A stretch of 64,000 nucleotides of DNA, taken from positions 10,207-74,206 of IMG/VR virus record IMGVR_UViG_2877251553_000001. One strand, given 5' to 3'. Source of the stretch: a virus (taxonomy: Duplodnaviria > Heunggongvirae > Uroviricota > Caudoviricetes). Each line of letters starts with the position of its first letter. The stretch's first letter is position 1. The notes under the pieces were generated by a model that did no database searches, was not told the DNA's origin, and saw only the letters and a program-made list of their open reading frames with translations. The position numbers and the translations under genes were made by a program. This document shows, piece after piece, positions 45,562 to 52,342 of this stretch.

Positions 45562-45714
45562 TAGTTGAAAAGGTGGGCACCTACGTTACCAATACAGGCT
45601 TAATGGCTACATACGGCGGTCAGTTTACGCTTACACTCATATTGAAGTGGCACACTGAATTTGGCCACCTGAACAGAGGTGATATGCTCACCTCAGAACA
45701 ACACAGGTGCTCCA

Positions 45715-46017
45715 ATGAAAAAAAGAAATTTTAGCGCAGAGTTTAAACGCGAATCCGCTCAACTGGTTGTTGACCAGAAATACACGGTGGCAGATGCCGC
45801 CAAAGCTATGGATGTTGGCCTTTCCACAATGACAAGATGGGTCAAACAACTGCGTGATGAGCGTCAGGGCAAAACACCAAAAGCCTCTCCGATAACACCA
45901 GAACAAATCGAAATACGTAAGCTGAGGAAAAAGCTACAACGCATTGAAATGGAGAATGAAATATTAAAAAAGGCTACCGCGCTCTTGATGTCAGACTCCC
46001 TGAACAGTTCTCGATAA
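45715..46017 (+). CDS. IS911 transposase OrfA
   Basis: Begins [21 protein letters not shown], matching IS911 OrfA. Confidence 0.85.
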
Positions 46018-46043
46018 TCGGGAAACTCAGAGCGCATTATCCT

Positions 46044-46885
46044 GTGGTCACACTCTGCCAAGTGTTCGGGGTTCATCGCAGCAGCTACAGATACTGGAAA
46101 AACCGTCCTGAAAAACCAGACGGCAGACGGGCTGTATTACGCAGTCAGGTACTTGAGCTACATGGCATCAGCCATGGTTCGGCCGGAGCAAGAAGCATCG
46201 CCACAATGGCAACCCGGAGAGGCTACCAGATGGGACGCTGGCTTGCTGGCAGGCTCATGAAAGAGCTGGGGCTGGTCAGCTGTCAGCAGCCGACTCACCG
46301 GTATAAACGTGGTGGTCATGAACATGTTGCTATCCCTAACTACCTTGAAAGGCAGTTCGCCGTGACCGAGCCAAATCAGGTGTGGTGCGGTGATGTGACC
46401 TGTATCTGGACGGGTAAGCGCTGGGCGTACCTCGCCGTTGTTCTCGACCTGTTCGCAAGAAAACCAGTGGGCTGGGCCATGTCGTTCTCGCCGGACAGCA
46501 GGCTCACCATGAAAGCGCTGGAAATGGCATGGGAAACCCGTGGTAAGCCCGGCGGGGTGATGTTCCACAGCGATCAGGGCAGTCATTATACGAGCAGGCA
46601 GTTCCGGCAGTTATTGTGGCGATACCAGATCAGACAGAGTATGAGCCGGCGCGGAAACTGCTGGGATAACAGCCCAATGGAACGCTTCTTCAGGAGTCTG
46701 AAGAACGAATGGATGCCGGTGGTGGGTTACGTAAGCTTCAGCGAGGCAGCTCACGCCATAACGGACTATATCGTTGGATATTACAGCGCACTAAGACCGC
46801 ACGAATATAACGGTGGGTTACCCCAAACGAATCGGAAAATCGATACTGGAAAAACTCTAACTCGGTGGCCAGTTTTTGTTGACCA
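46044..46885 (+). CDS. IS911 transposase OrfB; 3' end frameshifted relative to copy 2
   Basis: DDE integrase-type sequence; C run of 4 at about 46812 versus 5 in copy 2. Confidence 0.7.
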
Positions 46886-46999
46886 CTTCAGTTTACGCCG
46901 TCAGGCGTTGCTTCTGCATGGAAAGTTAAGAAATTATTCATGTTTCGCCTCGCCTGAATGATTCTGTAACTCATATTTGCCCAACAATTCGTCCGCTTC

Positions 47000-47155
47000 C
47001 TAAATAGCTTCTGGTACGCCATTGAGCAGTGACATAACCGCGCCAATCATTAACTTGTCTCTGTTGCTGGGGCTGGCCCCTTCAAGCCAGAACCCTAAAA
47101 CAGTCTGAACCTGTTCGATGCGACATTGCGCTTCAATGAGCTGGATGTTGGTCAT
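47000..47155 (-). CDS. Small hypothetical phage protein
   Basis: 51-aa ORF, ATGA-coupled to upstream gene. Confidence 0.3.
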   Translation of the reverse strand: MTNIQLIEAQCRIEQVQTVLGFWLEGASPSNRDKLMIGAVMSLLNGVPEAI

Positions 47156-47415
47156 TTCGCACTCTCCACATCGATTAAACCGATATCTATCAGGGAGGTA
47201 ACTTTTTGTAGCCAGCTATTGATTACTGTCGCCTGTTCCCCTCCCACCGAGGGAACAATCTCATTCATCACATGAACCAGACCTGTGCGCGCTCTGGTAA
47301 GCCGTTCAGTCGCGCAATCTGCGGGAGTGAATGTGTCTGGATATGGCTCTTCACGCCCCAGCAATGATTCAATTTCCAGCTCACACGGATGACGATAAAT
47401 TAAGTTGATATTCAT
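47152..47415 (-). CDS. Hypothetical phage protein
   Basis: 87-aa ORF in a co-directional overlapping gene string. Confidence 0.35.
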   Translation of the reverse strand: MNINLIYRHPCELEIESLLGREEPYPDTFTPADCATERLTRARTGLVHVMNEIVPSVGGEQATVINSWLQKVTSLIDIGLIDVESAK

Positions 47416-47606
47416 TTTTCACCCCCAAGAATTACCAGCTCGGCACGGGCATCGTTAACCAAAGATGAGCACGCTTTAATCGCATCCACGACATCAGTAG
47501 CGTCCATTTCTTCAGCCGAAAGACTGACAGCAACCAGGACAGCCGCTGCTTGCTCGATTAATTGAAGTGCGGACGTAAGGCGAGGGGTATTAATTGAGTT
47601 ATTCAT
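47412..47606 (-). CDS. Small hypothetical phage protein
   Basis: 64-aa ORF with overlapping start and stop. Confidence 0.3.
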   Translation of the reverse strand: MNNSINTPRLTSALQLIEQAAAVLVAVSLSAEEMDATDVVDAIKACSSLVNDARAELVILGGEK

Positions 47607-47817
47607 TGGTTGCCCCCGTTTTTCCTGGCATTTCGCCACCTTCCAGCAGGAAATGAACGTCACGAACGGCGAGATCCAATATCGCGAGTAACGCCTTCAG
47701 TCTTTCGTCTCGTGAGGGAGAGTTGCTCACCAGAATGTCGTTAATCACTTCTGTCAGTGTGATGATCTGGCTTGTGCGTTCGAGGGGATCCATATGCACA
47801 TCGTAGGTTTTAATCAT
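47599..47817 (-). CDS. Small hypothetical phage protein
   Basis: 72-aa C-terminal segment of the long ORF reads as a separate coupled gene. Confidence 0.3.
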   Translation of the reverse strand: MIKTYDVHMDPLERTSQIITLTEVINDILVSNSPSRDERLKALLAILDLAVRDVHFLLEGGEMPGKTGATNE

Positions 47818-49668: not shown

Positions 49669-49788
49669 TTTCAGTCTCCGTTAAGCGGCGTTAAACGCGT
49701 CCGGGTAGAGTTTCAGAATGTCGGCAATTTCCTGCTGAGAAAGTCCGTTGTGATCATTTATGTTCGCAAGATGGTTAATATGAAGTGG

Positions 49789-50680
49789 TCAACAAAAACT
49801 GGCCACCGAGTTAGAGTTTTTCCAGTATCGATTTTCCGATTCGTTTGGGGGTAACCCACCGTTATATTCGTGCGGTCTTAGTGCGCTGTAATATCCAACG
49901 ATATAGTCCGTTATGGCGTGAGCTGCCTCGCTGAAGCTTACGTAACCCACCACCGGCATCCATTCGTTCTTCAGACTCCTGAAGAAGCGTTCCATTGGGC
50001 TGTTATCCCAGCAGTTTCCGCGCCGGCTCATACTCTGTCTGATCTGGTATCGCCACAATAACTGCCGGAACTGCCTGCTCGTATAATGACTGCCCTGATC
50101 GCTGTGGAACATCACCCCGCCGGGCTTACCACGGGTTTCCCATGCCATTTCCAGCGCTTTCATGGTGAGCCTGCTGTCCGGCGAGAACGACATGGCCCAG
50201 CCCACTGGTTTTCTTGCGAACAGGTCGAGAACAACGGCGAGGTACGCCCAGCGCTTACCCGTCCAGATACAGGTCACATCACCGCACCACACCTGATTTG
50301 GCTCGGTCACGGCGAACTGCCTTTCAAGGTAGTTAGGGATAGCAACATGTTCATGACCACCACGTTTATACCGGTGAGTCGGCTGCTGACAGCTGACCAG
50401 CCCCAGCTCTTTCATGAGCCTGCCAGCAAGCCAGCGTCCCATCTGGTAGCCTCTCCGGGTTGCCATTGTGGCGATGCTTCTTGCTCCGGCCGAACCATGG
50501 CTGATGCCATGTAGCTCAAGTACCTGACTGCGTAATACAGCCCGTCTGCCGTCTGGTTTTTCAGGACGGTTTTTCCAGTATCTGTAGCTGCTGCGATGAA
50601 CCCCGAACACTTGGCAGAGTGTGACCACAGGATAATGCGCTCTGAGTTTCCCGATTATCGAGAACTGTTCAGGGAGTCTG
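49789..50680 (-). CDS. IS911 OrfB (copy 2), severed from OrfA by IS629
   Basis: Identical in sequence to copy 1 OrfB apart from homopolymer length. Confidence 0.7.
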
Positions 50681-50736
50681 ACTGAACCGCCCCGGGAATC
50701 CTGGAGACTAAACTTCCTGAGAAAGAGGTAAACAGG

Positions 50737-51063
50737 ATGACTAAAAATACTCGTTTTTCCCCCGAAGTCCGTCAACGGGCAGTCCGTATGGTTCTGGAAA
50801 GTCAGGGCGAATATGACTCACAATGGGCGACAATTTGTTCCATTGCTCCAAAGATTGGCTGTACGCCGGAGACTCTGCGTGTCTGGGTTCGCCAGCATGA
50901 GCGGGATACCGGAGGCGGTGATGGCGGGCTCACCACCGCTGAACGTCAGCGTCTGAAAGAGCTGGAACGTGAAAATCGTGAACTGCGCCGCAGTAACGAT
51001 ATCCTTCGCCAGGCTTCCGCTTATTTTGCGAAGGCGGAGTTCGACCGCCTCTGGAAAAAGTGA
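50737..51063 (+). CDS. IS629 transposase OrfA
   Basis: Begins [22 protein letters not shown], matching IS629 OrfA. Confidence 0.85.
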
Positions 51064-51950
51064 TGCCACTGCTGGATAAGCTGCGTAAGCTGTACGGGGT
51101 CGGACCGGTATGCAGTGAACTGCATATTGCCCCGTCAACGTATTACCACTGTCAGCAACAGCGACATCATCCGGATAAACGCAGTGCCCGTGCGCAGCGC
51201 GATGACTGGCTGAAGAAAGAGATACTGCGCGTATACGATGGGAATCATCAGGTATACGGTGTGTGTAAAGTCTGGCGTCAGTTGTTACGGGAAGGTATCA
51301 GAGTGGCCAGATGCACTGTGGCACGTCTCATGGCGGTTATGGGACTTGCCGGTGTTCTCCGGGGTAAAAAGGTCCGTACGACCATCAGCCGGAAAGCCGT
51401 TGCCGCAGGCGACCGCGTAAACCGTCAGTTCGTGGCAGAACGACCTGACCAGCTGTGGGTGGCTGATTTTACTTACGTCAGCACATGGCAGGGCTTCGTC
51501 TATGTGGCGTTCATCATTGATGTGTTTGCCGGATACATCGTGGGGTGGCGGGTCTCATCGTCCATGGAAACGACATTCGTGCTGGATGCTCTGGAGCAGG
51601 CGTTATGGGCCCGTCGACCGTCCGGCACGGTCCATCACAGTGATAAAGGTTCTCAGTATGTATCGCTGGCCTACACACAGCGGCTTAAGGAAGCCGGATT
51701 ACTGGCATCAACAGGAAGTACAGGCGACTCGTATGACAACGCGATGGCGGAGAGCATCAATGGTCTTTACAAAGCGGAGGTAATACACCGTAAGAGCTGG
51801 AAAAACCGTGCAGAAGTGGAACTGGCCACACTCACGTGGGTGGACTGGTATAATAATCGACGATTGCTGGAAAGGCTGGGCCATACTCCTCCGGCAGAAG
51901 CAGAAAAAGCTTATTATGCTTCCATCGGAAACGATGATCTGGCAGCCTGA
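51060..51950 (+). CDS. IS629 transposase OrfB
   Basis: DDE transposase of IS3 family matching IS629 OrfB. Confidence 0.85.
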
Positions 51951-51992
51951 GTTCACAGATAAAACACTCTCCAGGAAACCCGGGGCGGTTCA

Positions 51993-52270
51993 GACATCAA
52001 GAGCGCGGTAGCCTTTTTTAATATTTCATTCTCCATTTCAATGCGTTGTAGCTTTTTCCTCAGCTTACGTATTTCGATTTGTTCTGGTGTTATCGGAGAG
52101 GCTTTTGGTGTTTTGCCCTGACGCTCATCACGCAGTTGTTTGACCCATCCTGTCATTGTGGAAAGGCCAACATCCATAGCTTTGGCGGCATCTGCCACCG
52201 TGTATTTCTGGTCAACAACCAGTTGAGCGGATTCGCGTTTAAACTCTGCGCTAAAATTTCTTTTTTTCAT
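51993..52270 (-). CDS. IS911 OrfA (copy 2), 3' end truncated by IS629
   Basis: [12 protein letters not shown] start; diverges exactly at the IS629 junction. Confidence 0.7.
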
Positions 52271-52342
52271 TGGAGCACCTGTGTTGTTCTGAGGTGAGCA
52301 TATCACCTCTGTTCAGGTGGCCAAATTCAGTGTGCCACTTCA

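Follow-up and report, generated by a model that had tools for sequence, protein, structure and literature searches.

Two copies of the insertion sequence (IS) IS911 lie in inverted orientation around 2.9 kb of phage DNA in a 64,000-nucleotide stretch classified as Caudoviricetes (IMG/VR record IMGVR_UViG_2877251553_000001, positions 10,207 to 74,206; hereafter the window, numbered from its first letter). Comparison with relatives indicates that this locus is very probably an inversion made in place, in which a 2.9-kb piece of a decayed, satellite-type prophage was turned around between the two IS911 copies, and not a composite transposon imported from elsewhere. The inversion, the identity of its junctions and the order of the insertions can be read from genomes that still hold the earlier states.

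Two IS911 copies around a piece of prophage

We set the boundaries of both IS911 copies by repeat finding within the window and by reading the ends of the elements. Copy 1 (45643-46890, plus strand, 1248 bp) starts at 45643 with its left inverted repeat (IRL), TGAAGTGGCACAC..., and ends at 46890 with the tip of its right inverted repeat (IRR), ...GTTGACCACTTCA; its orfA appears in the list of open reading frames (ORFs) at 45714-46017 on the plus strand. Copy 2 (49781-52342, minus strand) has its IRR tip at 49781 and its IRL tip at 52342, and measures 1249 bp when a later insert is left out. The insert divides it into an IRR-proximal part of 902 bp with the orfB sequence (49781-50682, minus strand) and an IRL-proximal part of 350 bp that encodes a truncated OrfA (51993-52342, minus strand). 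The inverted arms pair 45990-46827 with 49845-50682 (838 nt, 100% identity), 45643-45995 with 51990-52342 (353 nt, 99%) and 46821-46895 with 49776-49850. The TGAAGTGG... tips are present at all four IS911 ends. Leaving the insert aside, a single substitution (nt 193) and a 1-nt indel in a C5 run (nt 1179) are all that separates the copies, a similarity far beyond chance. The substitution, G193, is private to the truncated OrfA of copy 2 and changes R to G. The initial annotation of the window had reported two inverted IS911 copies bracketing 2.9 kb of phage DNA, and both the repeats and the element ends bear this out, with the bracketed segment at exactly 46891-49780.

We use the name IS911 because copy 1 is 99.84% identical over its full length (~1250 bp) to positions 7029-8277 of an E. 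coli plasmid (L003), a copy that RefSeq labels 'IS3-like element IS911 family transposase, programmed frameshift'. The L003 copy lies inside an IS66 and has the same 3 bp (window 44636-44638) on each side of it, which shows that IS911 makes 3-bp target duplications.

In copy 1 of the window, one C of the C5 run (~46822) is absent, so that the last 19 orfB codons are frameshifted and the ORF extends to 46961. The same 1-nt loss occurs sporadically elsewhere, in copy 2 of L008 and in the single copy of L010. The window assembly also has many 1-nt indels relative to near-identical sisters, generally across 38900-59600, with several split genes (e.g. in the neighboring IS66 tnpC and ISSso6), and CP026832, a sister assembly from the same accession series, is PacBio-derived. 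For these reasons, the missing C is probably an assembly error and not a real defect. The 1-nt indels in the window look like long-read homopolymer errors, and apparent frameshifts should not be taken as biology. Sister genomes have an intact copy 1, with a fused OrfAB of 389 amino acids called there.

The insert in copy 2 is an IS3-family element of 1310 bp (50683-51992, plus strand) with ends TGAACCGCCCCGGG.../...CCCGGGGCGGTTCA, an intact orfA (50737-51063, plus strand, 108 amino acids) and an intact orfB (51060-51950, plus strand, 296 amino acids). Its length and ends suggest an IS629-type element; full-length copies that are 99.1% identical occur in E. coli, where RefSeq calls them only 'IS3 family transposase / AL1L pseudoknot'. 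A GAC duplication flanks the insert (50680-50682 and 51993-51995, the second copy falling within the IRL-proximal part) and places the insertion at IS911 nt 348-350. The A6G slippery site lies ~20 nt upstream of this point and the orfA stop 25 nt downstream. Since the insert falls between the slippery site and the orfA stop, OrfAB of copy 2 is interrupted there, and the original description of an insert at the OrfA/OrfB junction, with a GAC duplication and a disrupted transposase, is accurate.

The segment between the copies (46891-49780, minus strand, 2890 bp; hereafter the block) carries an antA/AntB antirepressor gene (48835-49668, Pfam AntA), a gene for a DUF4222 protein (48663-48929, Pfam DUF4222, called as 59 amino acids in sister genomes), an 'ash family' ORF (47599-48666, Pfam Phage_ASH), three small ORFs, the cut 3′ end of a PM1773-family gene and the cut 5′ end of a hypothetical gene. 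In E. coli, a stretch of a small satellite-type prophage that carries an integrase matches it at 99.7% identity and without interruption, and at least 80% of it is carried by ~480 E. coli genomes. In the E. coli prophage, the PM1773-family gene, a helix-turn-helix (HTH) gene and the integrase lie on one side of the block and small ORFs with a primase on the other. The integrase end adjoins tRNA-Thr/proA in L002 and L004, and yicC in L001, among the records inspected.

The window retains part of the same prophage at 38437-41611 (plus strand), which is 98-99% identical to E. coli L001 and L004 and colinear with Shigella L007 and L009. This part holds the integrase (38648-39862, plus strand, Pfam matches), a PM1773-family gene cut to 112 amino acids (41277-41615) and, from the Pfam families of the neighborhood, genes for a DUF6387 protein and an AlpA-like HTH protein. 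By comparison with the E. coli relatives, the primase and other distal prophage genes are absent from the window. The retained part and the block stand in opposite orientations. By alignment, the block is native DNA that continues the prophage of 38437-41611, in place but reversed, and not cargo.

Junctions in relatives and the order of events

The exact ant and ash proteins of the block are matched in the protein collection under Shigella dysenteriae names, and 20.8 kb of a Shigella chromosome (L013, CP026825.1) match the window at 100% identity. Look-up of the ant protein yielded ten long Shigella contigs, and ~13 long contigs were available in all. Read outward, the junction flanks in the window are TAT at copy 1 IRL, GTT at copy 1 IRR and GAA at copy 2 IRL; copy 2 IRR is abutted by ATA on the plus strand (49778-49780), the reverse complement of TAT and the second copy of the IS911 target duplication. 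The halves of this duplication are exchanged, with TAT at the outer end of copy 1 (IRL) and at the inner end of copy 2 (IRR), and the other two junctions belong to the resident copy. A single TAT duplication split over two copies is the signature of an IS-mediated inversion.

Four genomes carry a single IS911 at the locus. Two of these, L009 and L010, read ggcgtaaac/IRR...IRL/gaaccagacg, and their junctions match copy 1 IRR/gtttacgcc and copy 2 IRL/gaaccag of the window exactly, and in both the block is un-inverted and runs in line with the DNA on either side. No insertion interrupts gatcactcaTATtaaccatc in L007, L009 or E. coli L002 and L004, nor the TAT target site cactcaTATtaacc in the single-IS911 sister L009. 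Because the single-IS911 genomes hold the junctions of copy 1 IRR and copy 2 IRL and have the target site uninterrupted, the former junctions are old and the TAT junctions are new. Longer alignments give the same picture. Against Shigella L009, the left and right parts of the window align in the plus orientation and 45643-49791 alone aligns in the minus orientation; against E. coli L001 and L004, 38437-41615 aligns minus and 46891-49791 plus. Set against L009/L010 or L001/L004, the segment runs opposite to the DNA on either side of it, as expected of an IS-mediated inversion. The sole change of order relative to the single-copy genomes is the reversal of 46891-49780, and arrival of the unit as a transposon is excluded.

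The derived arrangement is found in at least eight independent assemblies, IS629 in copy 2 is common to all two-copy genomes, and every contig with the truncated OrfA specific to copy 2 (a marker for copy 2 with its IS629) has the same arrangement at this locus; a 10.6-kb contig of a multi-contig assembly spans copy 2 with IS629, the block and copy 1. Among 5426 complete E. coli genomes, none has the block/IS911 junction (120 nt) or the structure of the whole 13-kb region. Exact patterns of the copy 2 IRL/IS600 and block/IRR junctions had no match in GTDB species-representative genomes, and exact look-up of four junction-spanning ORFs in the protein collection matched none. A 37% match on plasmid NZ_CP065614.1 was discarded as an unrelated IS911 elsewhere in an IS66::ISSso6 element. 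We also considered placing L012 as basal in the two-copy clade from flank single-nucleotide polymorphisms (SNPs), and dropped this as the clade is too clonal to resolve.

The left edge of the unit dates copy 1 relative to a second element. An IS66-family element (41612-45634, minus strand, 4023 bp, ends GTAAG.../...GCTTAC) made the 8-bp duplication ACTCATAT, whose left copy lies at 41604-41611 and right copy at 45635-45642, and which is single in uninterrupted genomes. The TAT targeted by IS911 is the last three bases of the right-hand ACTCATAT (45640-45642), which abut copy 1 IRL. In L011, the IS66-family element has the same right junction and is joined straight to ACTCATAT-taacc with no IS911 there, which shows that the IS66-family element is the earlier of the two.

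Taken together, these junctions very probably reflect the following history. The ancestral locus held the prophage part, the block and one resident IS911, whose IRR faced ...ggcgtaaac and whose IRL faced the interior of an IS600 fragment. The IS66-family element entered ACTCATAT inside the PM1773-family gene. At the TAT beside this element, 2.9 kb away from the resident copy, a second IS911 then arose in inverted orientation, and the DNA between the copies flipped. Each copy was left with one old and one new junction, and the split TAT came to lie outside copy 1, at its IRL, and inside copy 2, at its IRR. Last came IS629, which entered copy 2, duplicated GAC and destroyed the transposase. As a reason for the choice of TAT, we considered the likeness of the flank to the IS911 end (TGAGTGATCA versus TGAAGTGGTCA); ~14% of random window positions score equally, so the likeness is not significant and was set aside.

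Route of the inversion and other readings

We infer the route of recombination from an allele inside the element. The resident IS911 has T364 in all four single-copy genomes, and generic IS911, such as the E. coli plasmid copy, has A364. Among two-copy genomes, L012 alone retains T364, and does so in copy 1, which has kept the IRR side of the resident; copy 2 is always A364. This is the pattern expected from a generic incoming copy and a crossover to the left of nt 364. On balance we favor two steps, in which another IS911 would have inserted at TAT by copy-out-paste-in, in inverted orientation, and RecA-type homologous recombination with a crossover in the first ~360 bp would have turned the block around. 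Simple insertion by copy-out-paste-in is the main transposition outcome for IS3-family elements, and the T364/A364 evidence leans, weakly, the same way.

Several points weigh against this account. The predicted intermediate would have two copies and an un-inverted block, and no such genome is present among the ~13 long contigs; block orientation is uniform in the two-copy clade, with no sign of ongoing flip-flop. The SNP argument depends on a single site. Within this very tight clade, alleles inside the IS turn over faster than the flanking sequence; such variation in an otherwise clonal clade implies gene conversion, which could give the same allele pattern. The final structure, moreover, is identical under a one-step route.

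In that one-step route, which we consider possible but doubtful, the resident IS911 would itself attack TAT 2.9 kb along the same molecule, for example as a tandem (IS911)2 dimer with an active IRR-IRL junction or in a replicative-type reaction, duplicating the IS and inverting the intervening DNA at once. Worked through on paper, the model gives the observed product: each copy receives one of the old junctions, and TAT comes to lie once outside and once inside. IS dimers, and inversions and deletions from inverted repeat-inverted repeat (IR-IR) junctions, are documented for copy-out-paste-in elements, with dimers known for IS911 itself, and from the tandem-dimer pathway of IS30 and IS911 one would expect an inverted segment bounded by an IS on both sides, with the target duplication in inverted orientation (PMC9333248). 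The missing intermediate would also fit; however, this is weak evidence, as the two-copy clade is almost clonal. Under a one-step reaction both copies should begin as T364, yet copy 2 is A364 in every genome, and the dominance of simple insertion among IS3-family elements counts against it as well.

A composite transposon, with IS911-block-IS911 moving or having moved as a unit by means of the copy 1 transposase, is highly improbable. The initial annotation saw a composite-transposon-like layout here, and the geometry stands, with two near-identical inverted IS911 copies around a segment, intact terminal repeats on the outside (both IRL) and a copy 1 that is intact in sister genomes. The transposon itself does not hold up. 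A search for target duplications around 45643-52342 found none, as TAT lies to the left of 45643 and GAA to the right of 52342. Nor do the copies carry the different duplications that independent insertions would leave; one TAT is shared by the outer end of copy 1 and the inner end of copy 2. The block is contiguous native prophage DNA both in the single-IS genomes and in E. coli free of the IS, and it is one IS copy that relatives lack, not the block. The IS911-flanked unit was likewise sought elsewhere in relatives, and it is confined to this single locus in Shigella, with none in the 5426 E. coli genomes. Going by its outer ends, mobility of the IRL...IRL unit would be formally possible, and has left no trace in the data. 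Hardly credible is an assembly artifact, a 2.9-kb segment misoriented between repeats, for although assemblers can stumble on inverted repeats of 1.25-2.6 kb and 1-nt indel errors are numerous here, the orientation is the same in at least eight independent assemblies, including the contig of the multi-contig assembly that crosses all junctions, and TAT at both new ends requires two IS copies whatever the orientation.

Neighboring elements and comparison with known systems

The IS911 copies stand among other mobile elements. Within the IS66-family element, the tnpA/B/C genes lie at 43161-45561 (minus strand; ORFs, with RefSeq names taken from the colinear L003), and an IS110-family element, ISSso6, lies at ~41617-43135 (plus strand; Pfam Transposase_20, RefSeq names on L003). 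ISSso6 sits 5 bp inside the left inverted repeat of the IS66-family element, directly after GTAAG, and does so likewise in an unrelated E. coli plasmid copy (L003 ~4006-5525) that is colinear at 97.5%. Either ISSso6 targets the IS66 repeat site-specifically or the IS66::ISSso6 pair moves together.

The 8-bp ACTCATAT in the PM1773-family gene has been struck by three ISs: the IS66-family element (8-bp duplication), IS911 (TAT) and, in L010 (8548-9891), a different lineage, IS2 with a 5-bp duplication, ACTCA. This triple strike could mark a hot spot, or selected disruption upstream of the antirepressor gene.

A variant of the locus is seen in two sister genomes, L005 (12779-14027) and L008 (12778-14026), corresponding to ~45097-46890 of the window, where the IS911 beside the block is reversed and hence direct with copy 2. 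It joins the same block nucleotide (ggcgtaaac/IRL), its IRR at the other end meets the interior of the IS66-family element (window position 45096), 546 bp (45097-45642) are deleted, and the IS911 copy bears a private allele, A660. We tried to derive this variant from the window state in one step by replicative inversion, deletion, a dimer reaction or homologous recombination, and none yields it. A third insertion, followed by loss of the spacer and the old copy between 8-bp TGAAGTGG tips, would fit.

End-directed intramolecular pathways of IS911 are known mainly from plasmid assays. We speculate, tentatively, that a one-step inversion and the L005/L008 variant might both be natural products of such pathways, with ACTCATAT as a genuine multi-IS hot spot for IS2, the IS66-family element and IS911.

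To the right, copy 2 IRL abuts the 3′ 569 bp of an IS600 (52343-52911, plus strand, from its interior to its right end), named from 99% identical matches over query positions 1-569 that RefSeq calls 'IS3-like element IS600 family transposase'. IS600 had cut a tyrosine integrase, of which a C-terminal fragment follows (52912-53376, plus strand; Pfam Phage_integrase, profile positions 51-171). Right of this fragment is an island module with a pRiA4b ORF-3 family gene (53956-54498, Pfam PRiA4_ORF3) and others. Homology to E. coli L004 begins at 53373, and the orientation of the module (53373-56052) relative to the block is opposite to that in L004. The resident IS911 is flanked by AAC on one side and GAA on the other, so no target duplication surrounds it, and it joins the prophage interior to the interior of the IS600 fragment (window 46888-46898, 52340-52349). 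Viewed from these sequence junctions, the arrangement points to an older IS911-associated rearrangement that may have taken out the primase half of the prophage.

No tRNA genes were found in window 30000-64000, unlike the tRNA-Thr/proA beside the integrase in E. coli L002 and L004, and the left boundary of the prophage is remodeled too. An EcoRII-type restriction endonuclease gene (35559-36773) lies to the left of the prophage (38437). Farther out, a 2.7-kb direct repeat (96% identity) joins window 1-2661 to 59803-62783, the right copy lying in lambdoid prophage genes (DUF968, KilA-N, antiterminator); it may reflect two related prophages or a duplication. The whole neighborhood is a set of stacked IS-driven rearrangements, as expected for Shigella.

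The locus offers a clean, fully reconstructed natural case of IS911 duplication and inversion in a Shigella prophage remnant, with ancestral and derived states preserved in sisters, and may be of use as a natural setting in which to weigh one-step against two-step IS-mediated inversion. It also carries a caution: in genomes rich in ISs, duplications and relatives need checking before an IS-X-IS layout is called a composite transposon. Beyond careful bookkeeping its import is small; IS911-bounded inversion is an already known, ordinary kind of IS-driven genome scrambling in Shigella. Only the triple strike at ACTCATAT and the L005/L008 variant are slightly out of the ordinary.

As an element, the IS911 of the window does not differ from the reference IS911 (IS3 family, copy-out-paste-in). 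It has the same orfA/orfB layout, A6G slippery site, TGAAGTGG... terminal repeats and 3-bp target duplications, although copy 2 is broken by another IS and copy 1 has a probable sequencing indel. With composite transposons of the Tn5/Tn10 type the locus shares inverted IS arms around a center and one defective arm. It departs from them in lacking a duplication around the unit, in enclosing local DNA that has stayed where it belongs, and in being known from one location alone. The product predicted for IS30/IS911 tandem-dimer rearrangements matches the locus, but no IR-IR junction or dimer is present now and the allele data lean against that pathway. The likeness is to IS-mediated inversions between inverted IS copies, which are common in Shigella chromosomes and in evolution experiments: the same inverted IS stands at both breakpoints, the target duplication is swapped and relatives keep the un-inverted state. 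Compared with the usual cases, this inversion is very small (2.9 kb), lies within a prophage remnant and involves an IS copy made at the breakpoint rather than one that already existed far off.

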